The notes under the pieces are model-generated. The model was not told the origin of the DNA. It searched no databases and saw only the letters and a list, made by a program, of their open reading frames with translations. A stretch of 64,000 nucleotides of DNA from an uncultured Clostridia bacterium. Its GTDB lineage: Bacteria; Bacillota; Clostridia; TANB77; CAG-508. The DNA lies in assembly GCA_946529215.1 (NCBI GenBank), contig CAMMZC010000003.1:3976-67975 (forward strand), read 5' to 3'. How positions within the stretch are numbered: the first letter of the stretch is position 1; every line of letters begins with the position of its first letter. Below, in pieces: positions 16,322 to 54,231 of the stretch. A program made the translations under genes and the position numbers.

Positions 16322-16397
<76 letters not shown>

Positions 16398-29764: not shown

Positions 29765-30850
29765 TTATAATAAATCTTCTCCTGAAAGTGCTTTAATTCC
29801 AGTGCTTATAACTTTATTTTTTTCTTCCTCTGTTAAATCTTTTTGATCTAATACAAGCCTTATAAATTCACCTTTTAAAGAAATATCATTTTGAAATTTC
29901 ATATAATCTATTTTGATATTTGGCTTATCTTCGATTTTTAGAAAAAAGAAATCTGATTCAAATTTTTTTGTTAAATAATCTATATCTCTTTCTTCTCCTA
30001 TCTCAATATCTCCGCCTAAAACTAATTTTACTAAGCTTGTTCCAGGAATACCCTTTAATTTTTCTGCTATGGATTGTTCAATTTCGTTATTTTCCTTTAA
30101 TCCTGTTAAGTCTGCATGAACTTCATATAATGTTCTATACGAAAAAGGTATAAACTCAGTTTTTATCTTATTATCTTCTATATTTAGTAGCACGAATCCC
30201 TTTTCTCCACATTCATCAAATCCTCTTCCTTCTAGACAACCAGAATAACAATATACTCCCCTATTGTCTAATTTTTCTTTTTTGTATGAATGAATATGTC
30301 CTAATGCAAGATAATCTATATTTTTGTTTTTAAGCTCTTTTAAATTTATTATCTCAGCTTTATCTTTTATAGATGTTTCTGACTCTTGACCATGCATAAC
30401 AACTATGTTTAACTTATTTTTTTCTAGAAATAAAGAATTATATATTTCATAATTTGGAGTATTTCCAAACTCTATTCCAGAAATTGTTATATTGCCATAT
30501 TCATAAGTTTGCCAATTATTTCTGTTAAATGTTTTTAAATTTGATGGTAATTCTTCATCTTCATCTATAAATCCGGCTTCATCATGATTTCCTTTTAAAT
30601 AGACAAAATCTATTTCAGGATTAGATATAATAGCATTTTTAACAGTCTTTTTAGCTTTAACAGTAACTGCTTTTTTATCAAATAAATCTCCTGCAATTAT
30701 TATTATTTTAACATCATTTTCTTTTGCATATTGTACCATTCTATCGAATGTAAGCAAAATTTCATTTTTTCTTTCTCTTGCTTTTTCTTTATCTAAGTTT
30801 GTTTCCATTTTAGAATCAAGATGTAAATCACTACAATGAATTATTTTCAT
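29765..30850 (-). CDS. SbcD/Mre11-family metallophosphoesterase (YhaO-like)
   Basis: MKIIHCSDLHLD, IIAGDLFD, GNHD, MHGQ and GHIH calcineurin-like phosphoesterase motifs. The ORF is open to 30880, but the ATG at 30850 matches the family start and has a GGAAAGGAA RBS. Confidence 0.85.
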   Translation of the reverse strand: MKIIHCSDLHLDSKMETNLDKEKARERKNEILLTFDRMVQYAKENDVKIIIIAGDLFDKKAVTVKAKKTVKNAIISNPEIDFVYLKGNHDEAGFIDEDEELPSNLKTFNRNNWQTYEYGNITISGIEFGNTPNYEIYNSLFLEKNKLNIVVMHGQESETSIKDKAEIINLKELKNKNIDYLALGHIHSYKKEKLDNRGVYCYSGCLEGRGFDECGEKGFVLLNIEDNKIKTEFIPFSYRTLYEVHADLTGLKENNEIEQSIAEKLKGIPGTSLVKLVLGGDIEIGEERDIDYLTKKFESDFFFLKIEDKPNIKIDYMKFQNDISLKGEFIRLVLDQKDLTEEEKNKVISTGIKALSGEDLL

Positions 30851-31047
30851 ATTTACTGACATTCCTTTCCTGCAAGGCACAAAATTTGATTAAAATAACT
30901 GCTTTTTCAGTTATTTTCAAACTTGCCTTGCTTTTCTAGAAGTTGACTAAAAGAAATTCTGCCCAATTTCTTTTTCAAAATATATCCTAACAAAAAAACA
31001 AAAAAATGTCAATAGTTTTTCGAACATTTTTTTGTTTTCTTTTTTTA

Positions 31048-31123
31048 TGGTGCCACCAAGCAGAATCGAACTGCTGGCCTACGGGTTACGAATCCGTCGC
31101 TCTACCAACTGAGCTATAGTGGC
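31048..31123 (-). tRNA. tRNA-Thr (CGT)
   Basis: Reverse complement GCCACTA TA GCTC AGTTGGTA GAGC G ACGGA TTCGTAA CCCGT AGGCC AGCAG TTCGATT CTGCT TGGTGGC ACCA. Clean cloverleaf with a single A31.C39 mismatch. Anticodon CGT. CCA encoded. Confidence 0.9.
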
Positions 31124-31300: not shown

Positions 31301-33427
31301 TTACAAATGCAAAACCCTTGCCTTTATCTCTTTAGTCTTCCCTACATTCCAAAAATTCTCTCCCAAGTATCCACAAGTGCGACGTACAACTGTAAGTTTG
31401 CTATGGTCTTTGTTTCCGCAATTTGGGCATTCCCATTCTAAGTCTTTATTTATTTTAATTTCTCCATCAAATCCACATACATGACAATAATCAGATTTTG
31501 TATTTACTTCTGCATATTGAATATTCTCATATATGTATTTAATTAATGTTTCTAGTGCTGGAATGTTGTTTTTCATATTTGGAATTTCTACATAAGAAAT
31601 TGCTCCACCACCAGATAATTGTTGAAATTCTGATTCAAATTTAAGCTTTTCAAATGCGTCTATTTTTTCTCTAACATCTACGTGATAAGAATTTGTGTAA
31701 TATCCTTTATCTGTTACATCTTCTATAGTTCCAAATCTTTCTTTATCTATTTTTGCAAATCTATAGCACAAGCTTTCTGCAGGTGTGCCATACAAAGAAA
31801 ATCCTATATTTGTTTCTTTTCTCCATTTTAAAGTTTTATCTTTCATGTATTGCATTACTTTTATTGCAAAATCGTGTCCTTCAGGTGCTGTGTGTGGAAC
31901 TCCTTTCATTAATTTTGTCATTTCATATATTCCTATATATCCAAGAGAAATTGTTGAATATCCTCCATAAAGTAATTTATCTATTTTTTCTCCTTGCTCT
32001 AATCTTGCAATTGCTCCATATCTCCAATGAATTGGGCTAATATCTGCAGATGTTCCAACTAATGCATAATGTCTACACATTAATGCTTCTTTACATAGTT
32101 CTAATCTTTCATCTAGTAGCTCCCAAAATTTCTTTTCGTCTCCTTCTGCAACAATTGCAACTTGTGGCAAATTAATGCTTACTACCCCTTGATTAAATCT
32201 ACCTTCAAATTTGTAGTTTCCATTTTCATCTTTCCATGGAATAAGGAAACTTCTACATCCCATTGGGCTAAATACATTTCCTTCATAATTTTCTCTCATT
32301 TTTTTAGCAGAAATATAATCCGGATACATTCTTTTTGCAGAGCATTCTACAGCAAGTTTTGTTAAATAATCATATTTTCCACCTGTTAAATTATTACATT
32401 CATCTAAAACATAAACTAATTTCGGAAATGCTGGTGTAACATAAACTCCTGCACTATTTTTAATTCCTTGTAACCTTTGACGTAATACTTCTTCTATTAT
32501 CATTGCATTTTCTTCGATGTATTCGTCATTAGGGTCAATGTGCAAAAATAGTGTAACAAATGGAGCTTGACCATTTGTAGTCATTAATGTGTTTATTTGA
32601 TATTGAATTGTTTGCACTCCCGCTGCTAATTCTGTTTTTAGCCTTTTTGAGACTAATTTTTCTATTATTTTTTTATCAAAATTTTCACCTAGTTCTTCTA
32701 TTACTTCTTTTTTAAATTTTTCCTTACTTTTTCTTAAATATTTGCCAAGGTGAATCATATCTATAGATTGTCCGCCATATTGATTACTTGCAACTGTTGC
32801 TATAATTTGAGAAGTTACAATGCATGCAACTTGAAAGCTCTTTGGAGAATCTATCATTTTGCCATTCATAACAGTTCCATTGTCTAACATATCACCTATA
32901 TTTATTAAACAACAATTAAATATTGGTTGTATAAAATAATCTGCATCATGAAAATGCAAAATTCCGTCTTCCCATGCTTTTATTATTTTTTCTGGAAGTA
33001 AAATTCTTTTTGATAAATCCTTTGAAACTTCTCCTGCAATTAAATCTCTTTGTGTAGAAGCAATTAATGCATTTTTGTTTGAATTTTCTTCCATTACATC
33101 TTTATTATTTCTTCTTATTAAACCTAAAATTGATTCATCTGTAGTATTACTTTTTCTAACCAATGCTCTTGTATATCTATATACTATGTATTTTTTTGCA
33201 AGCTCATATTTTCCAAGTTCCATCAATTTTGCTTCTATTATATCTTGAATATCTTCAACTAAAATTCTCTTTTTGCCTAATTCTTCTATATATTCTGTTA
33301 TTGTTTTTATATCTTCTGTTGATGCCTTTTCTTTTTTGGTAACTTCTGTATTTGCCTTTTCTATGGCAATTTTTATTTTACTTTTGTCGTAATCTACGAC
33401 TCTTCCATCTCTTTTTATTACTTTCAT
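31301..33427 (-). CDS. nrdD: Anaerobic ribonucleoside-triphosphate reductase
   Basis: ATP-cone at the N-terminus (MKVIKRDGRVVDYDKSKIKIAIEKA), Zn ribbon CHVCGF..CPNCG, and glycyl-radical motif RRTCGYLG at the C-terminus. The ORF-track extension to 33544 runs through a palindromic repeat and is rejected. No nrdG is adjacent. Confidence 0.93.
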   Translation of the reverse strand: MKVIKRDGRVVDYDKSKIKIAIEKANTEVTKKEKASTEDIKTITEYIEELGKKRILVEDIQDIIEAKLMELGKYELAKKYIVYRYTRALVRKSNTTDESILGLIRRNNKDVMEENSNKNALIASTQRDLIAGEVSKDLSKRILLPEKIIKAWEDGILHFHDADYFIQPIFNCCLINIGDMLDNGTVMNGKMIDSPKSFQVACIVTSQIIATVASNQYGGQSIDMIHLGKYLRKSKEKFKKEVIEELGENFDKKIIEKLVSKRLKTELAAGVQTIQYQINTLMTTNGQAPFVTLFLHIDPNDEYIEENAMIIEEVLRQRLQGIKNSAGVYVTPAFPKLVYVLDECNNLTGGKYDYLTKLAVECSAKRMYPDYISAKKMRENYEGNVFSPMGCRSFLIPWKDENGNYKFEGRFNQGVVSINLPQVAIVAEGDEKKFWELLDERLELCKEALMCRHYALVGTSADISPIHWRYGAIARLEQGEKIDKLLYGGYSTISLGYIGIYEMTKLMKGVPHTAPEGHDFAIKVMQYMKDKTLKWRKETNIGFSLYGTPAESLCYRFAKIDKERFGTIEDVTDKGYYTNSYHVDVREKIDAFEKLKFESEFQQLSGGGAISYVEIPNMKNNIPALETLIKYIYENIQYAEVNTKSDYCHVCGFDGEIKINKDLEWECPNCGNKDHSKLTVVRRTCGYLGENFWNVGKTKEIKARVLHL

Positions 33428-33453
33428 TTCTTTCCCTTTCTCACTAGTATTTT

Positions 33454-33655
33454 CGTTACAATTCACAACCGAAAATATTTTTTTATAAAAGTTAATATAT
33501 AAATTATTTGTAATTAAATGTGGGGACCGTTCAATGATTTCCAAAAGTTTGAAAAACTTTTGATGAAATCATTAGAATGGGGATAATGTAAAATAATTTA
33601 TATATTAACTTTAACCCGTACAACAATTAGCTGAAAATTGTAACGTATTTTTTAA
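33454..33655. repeat. Nested palindromic element in the nrdD leader (interrupted copy of the 43776..43863 element)
   Basis: Outer inverted repeat CGTTACAATT (33454-63) / AATTGTAACG (33646-55). A perfect 22-bp inverted repeat AAAGTTAATATATAAATTATTT (33488-509) / AAATAATTTATATATTAACTTT (33591-612). Central hairpin AATGATTTCCAAAAGTTT / AAACTTTTGatGAAATCATT (33533-73), flanked by direct ATG(T)GGGGA repeats. Confidence 0.75.
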
Positions 33656-33656
33656 A

Positions 33657-33665
33657 ATTATATCA
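33657..33665 (-). promoter_or_regulatory. Extended -10 promoter candidate for nrdD
   Basis: Minus strand reads TGATATAAT (TGnTATAAT), immediately upstream of the palindromic element. The whole ~220-nt element would then be the nrdD 5' UTR. Confidence 0.35.
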
Positions 33666-33684
33666 ATAATTATTAAAAAATCTG

Positions 33685-33713
33685 TTGCTATTGCAACAAA
33701 TATATGCTATAGT
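33685..33713 (+). promoter_or_regulatory. Promoter candidate for the crp/fnr gene, overlapped by a 14-bp palindrome
   Basis: TTGCTA (33685-90), a 17-nt spacer, then TATAGT (33708-13). The palindrome GTTGC-TATT-GCAAC (33684-97) overlaps the -35 and may be an operator. Confidence 0.4.
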
Positions 33714-33780
33714 TATATATATCAAAATAAGAAAAATTTTAAAATATATCCAACAAAAAAATTAATAGAGGTGTAACAAA

Positions 33781-34413
33781 ATGCAATCTGAAGAAGAAAT
33801 TTCAAATTTTCTAAAATCCATTGAAACTAGATGCTATAAGACAACTAAGCACTCATTTTTAAAAGGAGAAACAATAACAACATATCTTGAAAAACGTAAT
33901 CAACTATGCATTCTTCTAAATGGAGAGGCAGATTTAATTAGATATGATTTTAATGGTAATAAAACAATAATTGGACAATTTTCTAATAATAGTATTTTCG
34001 GAGAAGCCCTTTATCCCGCAAATACAAATAACGAACTTTTTGTGCTTGCAAAAACAAATTGTGAAGTATTATTTTTTTCTTATGATAATCTTTGGACTAA
34101 ATGCAGGCAAAATTGCTCATTTCATAAAGAATTTTCCGAGCAAATAAATAAACTAATTATTAGCCAAGTAGTTGAACTTAACACTAGAATTGAGCTTCTT
34201 ACTAAAAAAAATATAAGAGACAAACTTTTATCATATTTTGATATTTTGTCTAGTAAAAAATTAAGTAAAACTATATCTATTCCTTTTACTTTTACAGATT
34301 TAGCAGATTATTTGAGTGTAGATAGAAGTGCTATGACTCGTGAGCTTTCTCATCTTATTGAAGAAGGCTTTATAGAGAAAAAGGGAAAGAAAATTAAATT
34401 ACTATATAATTAA
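33781..34413 (+). CDS. Crp/Fnr-family transcriptional regulator
   Basis: 210 aa. N-terminal cNMP-binding-like beta-roll (GETITTY...LCILLNGEADLIRYDFNGNK). C-terminal HTH (FTDLADYLSVDRSAMTRELSHLIEEGFI). No N-terminal Cys cluster of true FNR. Confidence 0.85.
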   Translation: MQSEEEISNFLKSIETRCYKTTKHSFLKGETITTYLEKRNQLCILLNGEADLIRYDFNGNKTIIGQFSNNSIFGEALYPANTNNELFVLAKTNCEVLFFSYDNLWTKCRQNCSFHKEFSEQINKLIISQVVELNTRIELLTKKNIRDKLLSYFDILSSKKLSKTISIPFTFTDLADYLSVDRSAMTRELSHLIEEGFIEKKGKKIKLLYN

Positions 34414-35401: not shown

Positions 35402-35448
35402 TTTACATCTCTCTTTCTATTAAAATACTTTTTATTATTGGCATTTTA

Positions 35449-35571
35449 GTGTATATTTTAATAATGCGCGTAAGCAACCAAACGAGCATAGCGGGTGCGA
35501 TTGGATCAACTTACAAACAAGTCATTTAGAATATGGAAGTTGCGACACACAATCATTATAAAAATATACAC
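35449..35571. repeat. 123-bp imperfect palindromic intergenic element
   Basis: Left arm GTGTATATTTTAATAATGCGCGTAAGCAACC and right arm GGAAGTTGCGACACACAATCATTATAAAAATATACAC are reverse complements with a few mismatches. The relatively GC-rich core sits between the MBOAT and SGNH genes. Confidence 0.65.
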
Positions 35572-35578
35572 AAAAAAA

Positions 35579-37168
35579 CTAAAAATTAGCATACATTGGC
35601 TGTACTGCCTCATAGTTGATTCCATAAGCTCCAAATAAAAGTATTGCAAAAATTATTAAATAGTAAATAGTCCATCTAATAACTATATTTTTCTTAGAAA
35701 TTTTTTCTCTAACACTTATATCTTTTTCATGCATTATGCTAATTACAAACACTAAAATTGTAAATATAGCAATAATTATAAAATCTTGCACATCCATTCC
35801 AAGTTTTAGAATTGTTCCATCTTTAAATGAATTTAATGAGAAATTTGTAAACATCTTACCAAGCATCTCAAATCCTGATGTAACTGTTGTTGCTCTGAAG
35901 AATAACTCTCCAACAAAAACAAGTAATGTAGTTTTTATTATTTGCAATCCTTTATACCACGCTTTTTCTCTATTTATGTGTAATTTCGCACTAATCCACA
36001 AAACTGCAGGCTCAAATATTTTGCCTGATAAAATAAGTACAAAATGATACATTCCAAAAAATATAAAAGTCCAAGCTGCTCCATGCCAAAGTCCATTACA
36101 GAACCATACACAAAATAGTGCAATAGCACTTGCAATTAATGGTCCATAATATTTTCCAATTTTCTTTCTAGCATTTGTTGTTAATTTTTTTAATGGCTCA
36201 GAAAGTGATAATGGATAAAATATGTAATCTCTGAAAAATGCCCCTAAAGTTATATGCCATCTTGTCCAAAATTCTGATATGTTTTTTGAGAAAAATGGTT
36301 GTTTGAAATTTTCTGGTAATTTTATTCCAAAAATTTCTGATGTTCCAATTACCATATCCATTGTTCCTGAAAAATCCATATAAAGCTGTAATGTATAAAG
36401 AACCATACCAGCTACCATAATTCCGCCATCATATTTTGCATAATTTCGATATATTTCACCTATAAATCTGTTTAGCCTATCTGCAATAATCATTTTCTTA
36501 ATCATACCATAGCTAATTCTTAATAATCCGCTTTTTAAGTTAGCATAAGTAATCTTGTTTCCTTCCCATAATTGCATTGCAGTTTCTGAATATCTGCAAA
36601 TTGGGCCTTCCATAATTTGTGGGAAGAATGTTAAATATAAACTAAGTCTTGCAATATTTTTGTCTGCCTTAATTTTTTCGTGATATATGTCAACCAAATA
36701 CGAAACTGCTTGTAAAGTATAGAATGATATACCTATTGGCATTAATATTTTTGGTATTTGTAGCTTGAATGGTATTTTTAAAGTTTGTAATAAAGAATTT
36801 ACATTTCCACCAATAAATCCTATATATTTTACTACTAACAAAATACCAATATTTACTAAAACTCCAAATGTTAGTACTCTTCTTTGTTTTTTTAAATACT
36901 CTGCTCTTATTTTCTTTTTTTGTTCTTTTTCTGCTTCTTTTAAAATTCCATTTCTTTCATTTTGTAATAGTTCGAGCCAAATTCCTATATAATGTATTAA
37001 AAATGTAGAGCCTATTACATACACAATTAATTTTTTGCTTATAGACCAAAAAAATGCATAGCTAGCAAGCAATAGCACTTTCCATCTGTGTTTTTGTGGA
37101 ACTATGCTATAAGCAATTAATGTTAAAGGAAGAAACATAAAAAGATATGCTACTCCAAAATATGTCAT
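35579..37168 (-). CDS. MBOAT-family membrane O-acyltransferase (DltB/AlgI-like)
   Basis: 529 aa, multipass. Conserved His contexts FWTRWHITLGAFFRDY and NGLWHGAAW are typical of DltB/AlgI. Confidence 0.88.
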   Translation of the reverse strand: MTYFGVAYLFMFLPLTLIAYSIVPQKHRWKVLLLASYAFFWSISKKLIVYVIGSTFLIHYIGIWLELLQNERNGILKEAEKEQKKKIRAEYLKKQRRVLTFGVLVNIGILLVVKYIGFIGGNVNSLLQTLKIPFKLQIPKILMPIGISFYTLQAVSYLVDIYHEKIKADKNIARLSLYLTFFPQIMEGPICRYSETAMQLWEGNKITYANLKSGLLRISYGMIKKMIIADRLNRFIGEIYRNYAKYDGGIMVAGMVLYTLQLYMDFSGTMDMVIGTSEIFGIKLPENFKQPFFSKNISEFWTRWHITLGAFFRDYIFYPLSLSEPLKKLTTNARKKIGKYYGPLIASAIALFCVWFCNGLWHGAAWTFIFFGMYHFVLILSGKIFEPAVLWISAKLHINREKAWYKGLQIIKTTLLVFVGELFFRATTVTSGFEMLGKMFTNFSLNSFKDGTILKLGMDVQDFIIIAIFTILVFVISIMHEKDISVREKISKKNIVIRWTIYYLIIFAILLFGAYGINYEAVQPMYANF

Positions 37169-37469: not shown

Positions 37470-37600
37470 TTTTAACTTCCTTTCTAGGGACAGATTTCAG
37501 TTCCCATTTTACTTTAATATTTATTAACCTTTATTTATGAACTTTAGTTTATTATATATTTTATCAATAGCCAATTTCTCTTGGGGAAATACGTTCTTTT

Positions 37601-37808
37601 TTTTAAAAAATTTCGACGCACCCCCTTTTTTGGCACAAGCATAAGGATTAGCGGTAATCAATTTTTAGCGTTATTTTTGTTTAAAATCTCGCATTTTTTT
37701 ATAAAAGTCGTTATTTTTTAATCTCATTAATTTTAGCGATATTATTATATTAGGTATGATGCGTCTTGTTTGATTACAATTTTTGCGTCCAAATTTTTTA
37801 AAAATTTT
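37601..37808. mobile_element. MITE-like element, family A, copy 1
   Basis: ~208 bp, non-coding. Terminal inverted repeats AAAAATTTCGACGCA ... TGCGTCCAAATTTTT. The first ~65 bp and last ~30 bp are near-identical to 51463..51669. It is inserted between the decarboxylase and carrier-protein genes. Confidence 0.6.
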
Positions 37809-42824: not shown

Positions 42825-42965
42825 TATTTACACCTCCTTTTGGATTTATAACCCACAATCATAATTGTGAGTAAGGATGTTAATCATCGTTAACATTTAA
42901 CAAATACTATTCTATCACAAAAATTCTCTCTTTGCAAGTTTTTTTTAATTATTGTTTGAAATTTT

Positions 42966-43382
42966 TTAGTTTGCTATAGCTAATTTAAGTTCTTTTATTT
43001 CATTTTCATTTGAAATAATTCTAGCTTCTAACTTAGCATCGCGTTCATAGGTTATAGAGGATACTACATTTATTGCATTAACTACATCTTCTACTATTTC
43101 TTCTTTTTGTTTCTTTAAATCTTCTTTAAATTCTGCTCTTAATTCTTTTAAATCTTCTTTAAATTCTGCTCTTAATTCTTTTAAATCTTCTTTAGTTGCA
43201 AATTTCTTTAAGTCTTCTTTAGTTGCAAATTTCTTTAAGTCTTCTTTAGTTGCAAATTTCTTTGCTTCTTCTTTTGTAACCATATTTTTCAACTCACTTC
43301 TTATTTCGTCTAAAGCTGTTTGAAAATTATTAAATCCTTTTAATAATGTAATAAGTATATCATCTCTTTCTTTATTAGTCAT
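42966..43382 (-). CDS. Coiled-coil protein with in-frame tandem repeats (DUF1640-like?)
   Basis: 138 aa. KFATKEDLK occurs three times and ELRAEFKEDLK twice, encoded by perfect DNA tandem repeats. The remainder is heptad-like. Confidence 0.7.
   Translation of the reverse strand: MTNKERDDILITLLKGFNNFQTALDEIRSELKNMVTKEEAKKFATKEDLKKFATKEDLKKFATKEDLKELRAEFKEDLKELRAEFKEDLKKQKEEIVEDVVNAINVVSSITYERDAKLEARIISNENEIKELKLAIAN
43118..43267. repeat. Intragenic tandem repeats (2 x 33 bp, then about 3 x 27 bp)
   Basis: AAATCTTCTTTAAATTCTGCTCTTAATTCTTTT occurs twice (43118-43183). TCTTCTTTAGTTGCAAATTTCTTTAAG follows about three times (43187-43267). Both unit lengths are multiples of 3. Confidence 0.85.
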
Positions 43383-43775
43383 TTATTTCCTCCTTTCCTT
43401 GCTTCTAAATAATTTCTAGAAAACATTTTAATTGTATTTTTAAATATCCTCATATATAGTTAAATCATTTTTTATAAATTTTAGCATCTTCACACCTCCT
43501 AGTCTAAAATAATTTAGTATATTTAGCAAATAGCCTATCCAACCATTAATTAGTATTATATTTTATTTTTTTTATTTTTCTCTTTTTTTCTTTGATTTTT
43601 ATAAGAATCAAATTATTTGAAATAATTATCAATAATAAAAAAATATGTCTTACTGAAAAAGAAATTATTTTATCTTGTATAAGCAATAAAAACTATTGCA
43701 ATTAATATATTATCACAAAATATATAATAATGCAATAGTTTTTTAAAAAAATTACCAAATTTTTACATTTAATTA

Positions 43776-43863
43776 TTACAATTCACATCCGAAAATATTT
43801 TTTTAGTAAATGTAAATATTTATATATTAACTTTAAACAGTACAACAATAAGCTGTGAATTAT
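43776..43863. repeat. Uninterrupted copy of the palindromic element found in the nrdD leader
   Basis: TTACAATTCACATCCGAAAATATTTTTTTAG...ATTTATATATTAACTTTAAACAGTACAACAATAAGCTGTGAATTAT. Both ends align with 33456-33485 and 33585-33650. Terminal inverted repeat AATTCACA/TGTGAATT. Confidence 0.7.
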
Positions 43864-43872
43864 ATCATTTAG

Positions 43873-54045: not shown

Positions 54046-54048
<3 letters not shown>

Positions 54049-54231
54049 AATGAATATATAAGTATTTTAAGAAGTAATCTTAGTTAACTAAATAGCTTAA
54101 AAATTCTTAATAATTTTGCAAGGGAATCTAAAAACAAATTTTTTTAGGGTGCTTGTAAAATTAATTAGAATTTTTAGCGTTAAATGAAAGTTACCTAAGA
54201 TTATTCGAAAAATACATATATATTCATTTAA
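54046..54231. repeat. 186-bp imperfect palindrome (MITE-like)
   Basis: Two ~80-bp arms (TTTAATGAATATATAAGTATTTTAAGAAGTAATCTTAGTTAACT... and ...AGTTACCTAAGATTATTCGAAAAATACATATATATTCATTTAA) are about 75-80% complementary. Lies between the yezG-like stop and the eno leader. Shares the ATTTTTAGCGTTA submotif with family A copy 1. Confidence 0.65.

Follow-up and report, generated by a model that had tools for sequence, protein, structure and literature searches.

The 5' leader of nrdD, the gene for anaerobic ribonucleoside-triphosphate reductase, contains a 190-bp nested palindrome in contig CAMMZC010000003.1 of an uncultured Clostridia bacterium, of which one stretch of 64,000 nucleotides (64 kb, ~27% G+C; hereafter the window) was analysed. 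With a probability of roughly 0.85, we consider this palindrome to be a non-autonomous transposable element, namely one of the miniature inverted-repeat type (MITE), of a family that has not been described before. It is bounded by terminal inverted repeats and flanked by a target-site duplication, related lineages carry the corresponding empty site, and copies with the same ends lie at other loci and in other taxa. A first-pass annotation of the window had offered two explanations for this leader, either small palindromic mobile elements or a structured regulatory RNA or operator for anaerobic ribonucleotide reduction; the former holds for the outer element, and the latter is not supported, given relatives that have no such element, the lack of an Rfam match and the lack of compensatory changes. 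Coordinates refer to the window throughout, and L and P numbers denote contigs and proteins fetched from relatives, the source names of which point to gut and rumen metagenomes.

Filled and empty sites upstream of nrdD

Contigs encoding NrdD homologues were fetched, and the spacers between nrdD and the regulator gene divergent from it were aligned between lineages (Table 1). The insert has the same length, 190 bp, in both filled lineages, that of the window and that of L001, a metagenome-assembled genome (MAG) from goat omasum (RGIG2666). It is missing at nrdD from five related lineages, two of which carry unrelated palindromes there.

Table 1. Spacers between nrdD and the divergent regulator gene in the window and in its relatives
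Lineage	Identity to window	Spacer	Content of leader
Window, L012	NrdD 100%	353 bp	190-bp element
L001	nrdD DNA 92.5%		190-bp element
L035-L039	NrdD 97%	111 bp	empty site
L017 group	NrdD 96%	169 bp (L041: 168 bp)	unrelated 62-nt perfect palindrome, hairpin B
L022, L023, L026	NrdD 96%	134 bp	single arm of hairpin B
L027	NrdD 95%	116 bp	no palindrome
L013, L014	NrdD 91%	187 bp	third, different palindrome, hairpin C
L015, L016	NrdD 86%	123-124 bp	no palindrome

The most informative empty site is that of L035-L039, in which the gene order is as in the window (the divergent regulator gene, then a gene of ~326 aa), a single copy of the 8-bp target is present without the element, and only ~30 nt lie between the -10 and the nrdD start codon; in lineages of 86-97% NrdD identity that lack the element, the distance from the -10 hexamer to the start codon is only ~30-45 nt. 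This site reads ...TATAATTGTAAAAAAATATACAAGTGAG. With a slash marking each junction, the three-way alignment gives ...TATAATTGTAAAAAAAT/ATACAAGTGAG for the empty site and ...TTTTAAAAAAATA/GTTACAATTCACA...TGTGAATTGTAAC/AAAAAATA/CTAGTGAG for L001, and because of these junctions the insert can be delimited as a unit bounded by 13-bp perfect terminal repeats and an 8-bp duplication. The filled site of L001 is AAAAAATA/GTTAC...GTAAC/AAAAAATA/CTAGTGAG, where AAAAAATA is the duplication, identical at 8/8 positions; the two copies in the window match at 7/8. The target of insertion is A/T-rich.

Since terminal repeats and an 8-bp duplication lie at the borders of the insert, the element fits the MITE definition, the defining features of which are summarised in PMC10969869 (prokaryotic MITEs are reviewed also in PMC2229807). 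It is shorter than 500 bp and non-coding, its target-site duplication has a matching empty site, and its occurrence varies between related genomes, some having it and some not, both at nrdD and at a second site at 43.8 kb.

Structure of the long element

The element consists of inverted repeats nested within one another (coordinates in Table 2). The perfect 22-bp inverted repeat that had been reported at 33488-33509 and 33591-33612 is confirmed and extends to 29-nt arms that are 90% complementary; the inner hairpin previously placed at 33533-33573 is equally real, both of its cores being perfect. The direct repeats ATG(T)GGGGA said to flank this hairpin are present as ATGTGGGGA and ATGGGGA, but the two copies differ by a 2-nt indel. 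An asymmetric subterminal stretch, CCGAAAATATTTTT, is conserved at the left end of the element.

No open reading frame (ORF) specific to the 190-bp element was found, the only frame across it being a mechanical in-frame upstream extension of nrdD, and a promoter/terminator scan gave no convincing outward-facing promoter and no terminator-like site inside it. The scan did score TTGATA-18-TACAAT on the nrdD strand (10/12), with its -10 in the promoter-proximal terminal repeat; this candidate for the nrdD promoter was set aside in favour of the conserved extended -10 described below. The nrdD leader RNA is predicted to fold as a single rod (-55.2 kcal/mol, z = -6.1) in which the ribosome-binding site is unpaired.

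Dispersal and the search for a parent transposon

A repeat common to the nrdD leader and to 43.8 kb had been pointed out in the first-pass annotation, and the alignment substantiates it: 29/30 positions are identical between 33456-33485 and 43776-43805, and 35/38 between 33596-33633 and 43818-43855, matches as good as which never arise in shuffles of the window. Two measurements change. The second copy, given as an 88-bp unit at 43776..43863, exists but spans 92 bp (43775-43866), and the insert of ~105 bp said to split the unit in the nrdD leader is genuine extra material with a length of ~98 bp. In this short copy the terminal repeats match at 10/13 positions and the flanks, ATTTAATT and ATTTAGCT, at 6/8, and its fold is unexceptional (z = -1.05). 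These two are the only copies in the window. The 43.8-kb site is also filled in L028 and L029; the syntenic L032 is without the short copy, which falls within a larger indel of ~900 bp. This indel, the region from the MBL-fold gene to rpsF (42825-43872 in the window; a spacer of 162 bp in L032), also holds a 138-aa ORF without a Pfam family (42966-43382, minus strand), in which KEDLKKFAT / KELRAEFKEDL repeats are arranged in tandem.

A scan of a genome collection gave matches only in L001 and L002, and a metagenome scan gave nine matches, of which only L008 and L010 share the extended end. The other scan matches, L003-L007, L009 and L011, were rejected as family members, being chance matches in coding or unrelated DNA. 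In L002, L008 and L010, contigs of other uncultured Clostridia, the left end recurs over 22-28 nt at identities of 22/22 to 27/28, and the right ends of L002 and L008 are similar (AGCT..GAATTGTAAC); L010 ends at the contig edge. L002 is a Clostridiaceae MAG of 31% G+C whose copy has a recN-like gene on one side and lysS on the other and is flanked by TATAAAAA and TATAAAAA (8/8 if the element start is taken as TTAC). The interiors of all three are entirely different from that of the window element, the interior of L002 being a G+C-rich hairpin with a stem of ~27 bp (rod, -76.8 kcal/mol).

Several observations weigh against the identification as a MITE. The duplications are degraded in the short copy and in L008 (about 4/8); there are just two copies in 64 kb and none further in ~450 kb of related loci; and no autonomous insertion sequence with the same ends was found in the window or in the fetched contigs. 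The sole transposase nearby, of the IS630 family in L004/L011, belongs to an element with unrelated terminal repeats, and the annotated part of the window encodes no transposase. Finally, the 96.8% identity of the element between the window and L001, which is considered below, is not predicted by a purely neutral, single ancient insertion.

The IS630-family insertion sequence (L004 230-1392, the same as in L011) encodes a DDE_3 transposase of 350 aa between 36-nt terminal repeats, and adjoins a probable chance match to the end motif in an unrelated organism. It was rejected as parent because its own terminal repeats (230-265 and 1357-1392) exclude the motif. Neither the end motif nor the inner hairpin had a relevant match among viral contigs, a BLAST search of plasmids and phages gave none either, and the best match to NrdD among viral contigs is 77% identical and has a different promoter. 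A motif shared near both copies, TTGCAATAG, was discarded as unspecific, with five occurrences in the window. A literature search for the terminal repeat sequence returned unrelated eukaryotic papers only.

Other hairpins in nrdD leaders of the clade

Hairpin B, the palindrome in the nrdD leader of the L017 group, has the form TGGAAAATGGGACGGTTCTCTTTTCCA-N8-reverse complement and lies at L017 9919-9980; in these genomes the leader of sbcD (Metallophos) has a diverged copy as well (L017 16729-16790). Hairpin B is also present in L018-L021, L024, L025 and L040-L044, is not accompanied by a target-site duplication and resembles a REP-like family. In L022 (9003-9136) and in L023 and L026 (5883-6016), which have the same NrdD protein as the full-palindrome strains, one arm is left, which is an example of palindrome-stimulated deletion. 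Hairpin C (L013 and L014, 2895-2990) is an imperfect palindrome (-44.6 kcal/mol, z = -8.7).

Pairwise comparison of the leader hairpins gives p ~0.008 for the inner hairpin of the window element against B, p = 0.33 for the inner hairpin against C and p = 0.055 for B against C; a common origin of the three was not adopted, as these values make a weak lead only. Gene content next to nrdD is a strain-level polymorphism within the 96% group as well: downstream of nrdD, L017 and L025 (12338-13576, minus strand) have genes for an HTH_28 protein of 412 aa and for an H+-pyrophosphatase, which L018-L024 do not have there.

Long and short forms

What the short copy lacks relative to the long one is the inner hairpin together with one of the two arms of the middle palindrome. 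It is most likely an older, decayed member of the family that would have lost this part by palindrome-stimulated deletion, as suggested by its decayed ends and flanks. A precedent for the loss of an arm is provided by L022, L023 and L026, where the breakpoints lie in 7-bp direct repeats (TTTTCCA). Deletion is therefore favoured for the difference between the two forms.

The odds that the inner hairpin itself entered the element by a nested insertion are roughly even. Imperfect direct repeats flank it, the same ends hold a different hairpin in L002, and it weakly resembles hairpin B by local alignment; however, a deletion derivative explains the short copy equally well.

Comparison with known repeat families

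The element resembles prokaryotic MITEs in being an A/T-rich sequence in an A/T-rich intergenic target, in flanking repeats that decay with age, in its strain-variable presence and in the stable hairpin transcript predicted for it. It is unlike typical MITEs in its low copy number in the sampled sequence and in that no parent insertion sequence was found for it; furthermore, its members have only their ends in common (~22-30 nt at the left end, ~20-30 nt at the right end), and the long hairpins between them are quite different.

Correia elements (CREE) of Neisseria duplicate a TA dinucleotide. They are similar to the window element in occurring as a long and a short form, set apart by ~50 bp of internal sequence, and in often lying between promoter and coding sequence, where they are co-transcribed. 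They differ from it in their 26-bp terminal repeats of unrelated sequence, their IHF site and their promoter motifs, whereas the window element has an 8-bp duplication, 13-bp terminal repeats and no outward promoter that could be seen. In Neisseria, co-transcribed Correia hairpins are cleaved by RNase III and mRNA levels are altered (PMC2649163; PMC10969869).

RUP of pneumococcus and the IS630-related MITEs are likewise small, intergenic, found in Firmicutes and bounded by inverted repeats. This class was at first suggested by the TA dinucleotides beside the element ends; a TA duplication of IS630/Tc1-like origin, for which all copies being flanked as T-TA...TA had spoken, was rejected since the empty site reveals a duplication of 8 bp, unlike the TA of RUP and IS630-like MITEs. 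REP/BIME and ERIC are also transcribed intergenic palindromes, ERIC includes longer variants with internal insertions, and the module mosaics of BIME resemble shared ends around variable hairpins as seen in the present family. However, REP sequences are 20-40 bp long and G+C-rich, are associated with RAYT transposases and do not duplicate their target site, ERIC is known from enterobacteria and vibrios only, and no sequence similarity of the element to REP/BIME or ERIC was found.

Conservation of the element and alternative explanations

Between the window and L001 (6940-7129), the element is 96.8% identical (184/190). The corresponding value for nrdD is 92.5% over all positions and 80.4% at third codon positions, that for third codon positions of the regulator gene is 73%, and that for the promoter spacer is 89.7%; the excess of the element is significant against the flanking intergenic sequence (Fisher p = 0.014) and against nrdD third positions (p = 8e-10). 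The differences between window and L001 cluster at the junctions (33449, 33454 and 33645-33647), and the register of the duplication is offset by 1 nt (AAAAAATA in L001 versus AAAAATAC / GAAAATAC in the window). None of the six substitutions within the element is compensatory, and two of them break base pairs. If the element was inserted twice independently, at positions 1 nt apart, two more mutational events have to be assumed; if it was inserted once in an ancestor, about four changes at the junctions are required, together with constraint or gene conversion to maintain the interior.

These figures raise the possibility, which we regard as real although unlikely, that the element is not a neutral passenger but either a site-specific MITE that was inserted twice independently or a hairpin retained by purifying selection. 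Under the former, the MITE may have entered at the nrdD start with one orientation and a shift of just 1 nt in lineages that differ at 20% of synonymous sites, and would thus be highly specific for a promoter-proximal target; under the latter, sister lineages may have convergently recruited unrelated palindromes to the first ~20 nt of their nrdD mRNA. Either would explain why the element is so much better conserved than the neutral sites, at 73-80%, and why the differences cluster at the junctions.

A rival explanation, likewise unlikely, would be exaptation, in which an element that is a MITE by origin is now selected as a 5'-proximal stem-loop that stabilises or processes nrdD mRNA, other lineages having acquired different hairpins there likewise. 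The identity values given above are in line with this idea, as is the occurrence of three different palindromes within about the first 20 nt of the predicted leader in three lineages, with hairpin B found in the sbcD leader of its group too; the hairpin would also start ~6 nt from the predicted 5' end and leave the ribosome-binding site free. However, the sister lineages L035, L027 and L015 have no hairpin at all, strains with identical NrdD are polymorphic for full and half hairpin B, and 2/6 changes in the element disrupt pairs with none compensating. A recent arrival would also account for the high conservation. Moreover, the sbcD leader differs by lineage, so that hairpin turnover may be clade-wide rather than specific to nrdD; leaders rich in palindromes seem to be a general feature of the clade, which makes a reading specific to nrdD less compelling.

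Growth of the palindrome in place, by successive inverted duplications through template switching, is very improbable. Such growth would be compatible with the nesting of inverted repeats in the window element and with the coexistence of full-palindrome and single-arm alleles in the L017 group, and the likeness at 43.8 kb would then have to be due to gene conversion or chance. However, the same left end of 27-30 nt, with a similar right end, occurs at unrelated loci and in other taxa, the 8-bp target duplication is clean with an exact empty site, and the two filled lineages have inserts of precisely equal length, 190 bp.

The nrdD promoter and its candidate control element

The nrdD product of the window is 100% identical to P0001, and the nrdD start codon, ATG at 33427, is kept in relatives. 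The gene is paired with the Crp/Fnr-family gene in every relative examined, and the genes around the pair vary. All nrdD-regulator spacers compared have in common a GTTGC-N4-GCAAC core, a T-run and a TATAAT -10 hexamer. The putative extended -10 that had been proposed at 33665-33657 is supported by this conservation: its hexamer is kept in all relatives examined, and the upstream TG in all but the most distant ones, L015/L016. From the position of the hexamer, nrdD transcription is predicted to start near 33650.

The GTTGC / GCAAC core belongs to a palindrome at 33683-33698 and does not vary in any of the relatives, which range from 86% to 100% in NrdD identity. This palindrome is centred ~40.5 bp upstream of the position where nrdD transcription is predicted to start, and it overlaps a -35-like hexamer of the divergent regulator gene. 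A class II Crp/Fnr promoter has a 5-4-5 inverted repeat near -41.5 next to a Crp/Fnr-family regulator gene, and GTTGC-N4-GCAAC, given its predicted distance and its neighbour, is a candidate for such a site. On sequence grounds, the true control element of nrdD is likely this putative GTTGC-N4-GCAAC operator of the adjacent Crp/Fnr-family regulator, with class II-type geometry.

The element was inserted ~7 nt past the predicted nrdD start, leaving the promoter, that is the operator palindrome and the extended -10, intact. It would then be co-transcribed in a leader of ~223 nt and would fold in the RNA into a rod of three nested stems, the 22-29-bp helices of which would suit RNase III, and the ribosome-binding site should stay unpaired ~10-15 nt downstream of the element, with the start codon ~27 nt downstream. 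At most, the element may modulate the mRNA as a 5'-proximal hairpin or RNase III substrate, in the manner of Correia elements. Because there is no terminator-like site on the nrdD strand and the ribosome-binding site is predicted to be free, the element is probably a tolerated passenger in the nrdD leader, with a modulating effect at most, rather than a dedicated sensor.

NrdR operators consist of tandem 16-bp palindromic boxes with the consensus acaCwAtATaTwGtgt. No NrdR box (this consensus, <=3 mismatches) is present at 33400-33800, in agreement with the first-pass annotation; five matches elsewhere in the window are not clearly above chance. With Rfam 15 at gathering thresholds, nothing was found in the nrdD leader, in the 43.8-kb region or in L002, and at permissive thresholds only generic long-hairpin (miRNA-precursor) matches appeared, far below the cut-off. 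Covariation supporting the leader structure is likewise lacking among the six substitutions between window and L001.

That the element serves anaerobic ribonucleotide reduction as a dedicated cis-regulatory RNA or as a DNA operator is accordingly the least probable of the explanations: the position between the nrdD promoter and the ribosome-binding site, facing the Crp/Fnr-family gene, the very stable predicted structure and the high conservation between window and L001 would all suit such a role, but the element bears the hallmarks of a transposon, recurs at 43.8 kb directly after the 3' end of a gene unrelated to nrdD and, in another taxon, in the interval of a recN-like gene and lysS, has neither an Rfam match nor an NrdR-box-like site, and is missing from lineages that keep both promoter and regulator gene. 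These lineages span 86-97% NrdD identity, and relatives without the element had been named in advance by the first-pass annotation, together with unchanged regulation, as evidence against its proposal; the empty sites of these lineages largely refute a regulatory role.

Other features of the window

Table 2 collects the features discussed and the RNA genes recognised by Rfam. An SbcCD-type nuclease, an enzyme that cleaves DNA hairpins, is encoded beside the 190-bp palindrome, which may be a coincidence.

Table 2. Coordinates of the element copies, their parts and neighbouring features in the window
Feature	Position	Strand	Remarks
Long element copy, 190 bp	33455..33644	.	non-coding nested palindrome in nrdD 5'UTR, between promoter and ribosome-binding site
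Left terminal inverted repeat, GTTACAATTCACA	33455..33467	+	pairs with right end 13/13 in L001, 11/13 in window
Right terminal inverted repeat, TGAAAATTGTAAC (L001: TGTGAATTGTAAC)	33632..33644	+	from alignment with L001
Left copy of 8-bp target-site duplication, GTATTTTC	33447..33454	+	from comparison of filled and empty site
Right copy of 8-bp target-site duplication, GTATTTTT	33645..33652	+	from filled and empty site; spans predicted nrdD start
Middle palindrome, left arm, 29 nt	33488..33516	+	missing from short copy
Middle palindrome, right arm, 29 nt	33584..33612	+	present in short copy
Inner hairpin	33527..33580	+	perfect cores 33533-33541 / 33565-33573 and 33542-33550 / 33554-33562
Direct repeat ATGTGGGGA	33518..33526	+	left of inner hairpin
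Direct repeat ATGGGGA	33577..33583	+	right of inner hairpin, overlapping its outer pairs
Short element copy, 92 bp	43775..43866	.	starts 6 nt past stop codon of MBL-fold hydrolase gene, which right flank overlaps
nrdD, anaerobic ribonucleoside-triphosphate reductase, 708 aa	31301..33427	-	Pfam NRDD, Gly_radical and ATP-cone domains
Crp/Fnr-family regulator gene, divergent from nrdD	33781..34413	+	Pfam cNMP_binding, HTH_Crp_2
Extended -10 of nrdD promoter, TGATATAAT	33665-33657	-	predicted; sequence conserved in relatives
Palindrome TGTTGC-N4-GCAACA, candidate operator	33683..33698	.	GTTGC / GCAAC core of arms invariant, 4-nt spacer variable
SbcD-like (Metallophos) gene	29765-30880	-	directly downstream of nrdD; followed by SbcC-like (AAA_23) gene
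tRNA gene	31051-31123	-	Rfam; between nrdD and SbcD-like gene
6S RNA gene	26983-27186	-	Rfam
tRNA gene	16322-16394	+	Rfam

Three further intergenic inverted repeats in the window may be MITE-like elements of other families: 54046-54231, with outer arms of 28 nt and inner arms of 25 nt nested within them; 37600-37804, with 21-nt arms that are 95% complementary; and 35434-35586, with 33-nt arms. A 14-nt motif, AATTTTTAGCGTTA, occurs at both ~54169 and ~37660.

Implications

The nrdD leader should not be annotated as a new riboswitch or operator. Attention shifts instead to the conserved palindrome at ~-41, which, together with the Crp/Fnr-family gene, is likely to be what controls nrdD in this clade of uncultured gut and rumen bacteria. 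MITEs as a kind are well known, and the member described here is a previously undescribed one, which adds a new family from a poorly studied group, characterised by an 8-bp duplication and interchangeable hairpin interiors. The comparison also indicates that 5' leaders in this clade turn over fast, via the gain and partial deletion of palindromes. If site-specific re-insertion or exaptation were true, the nrdD locus would offer a small natural system in which the influence of mobile hairpins on the 5' ends of mRNAs could be studied.

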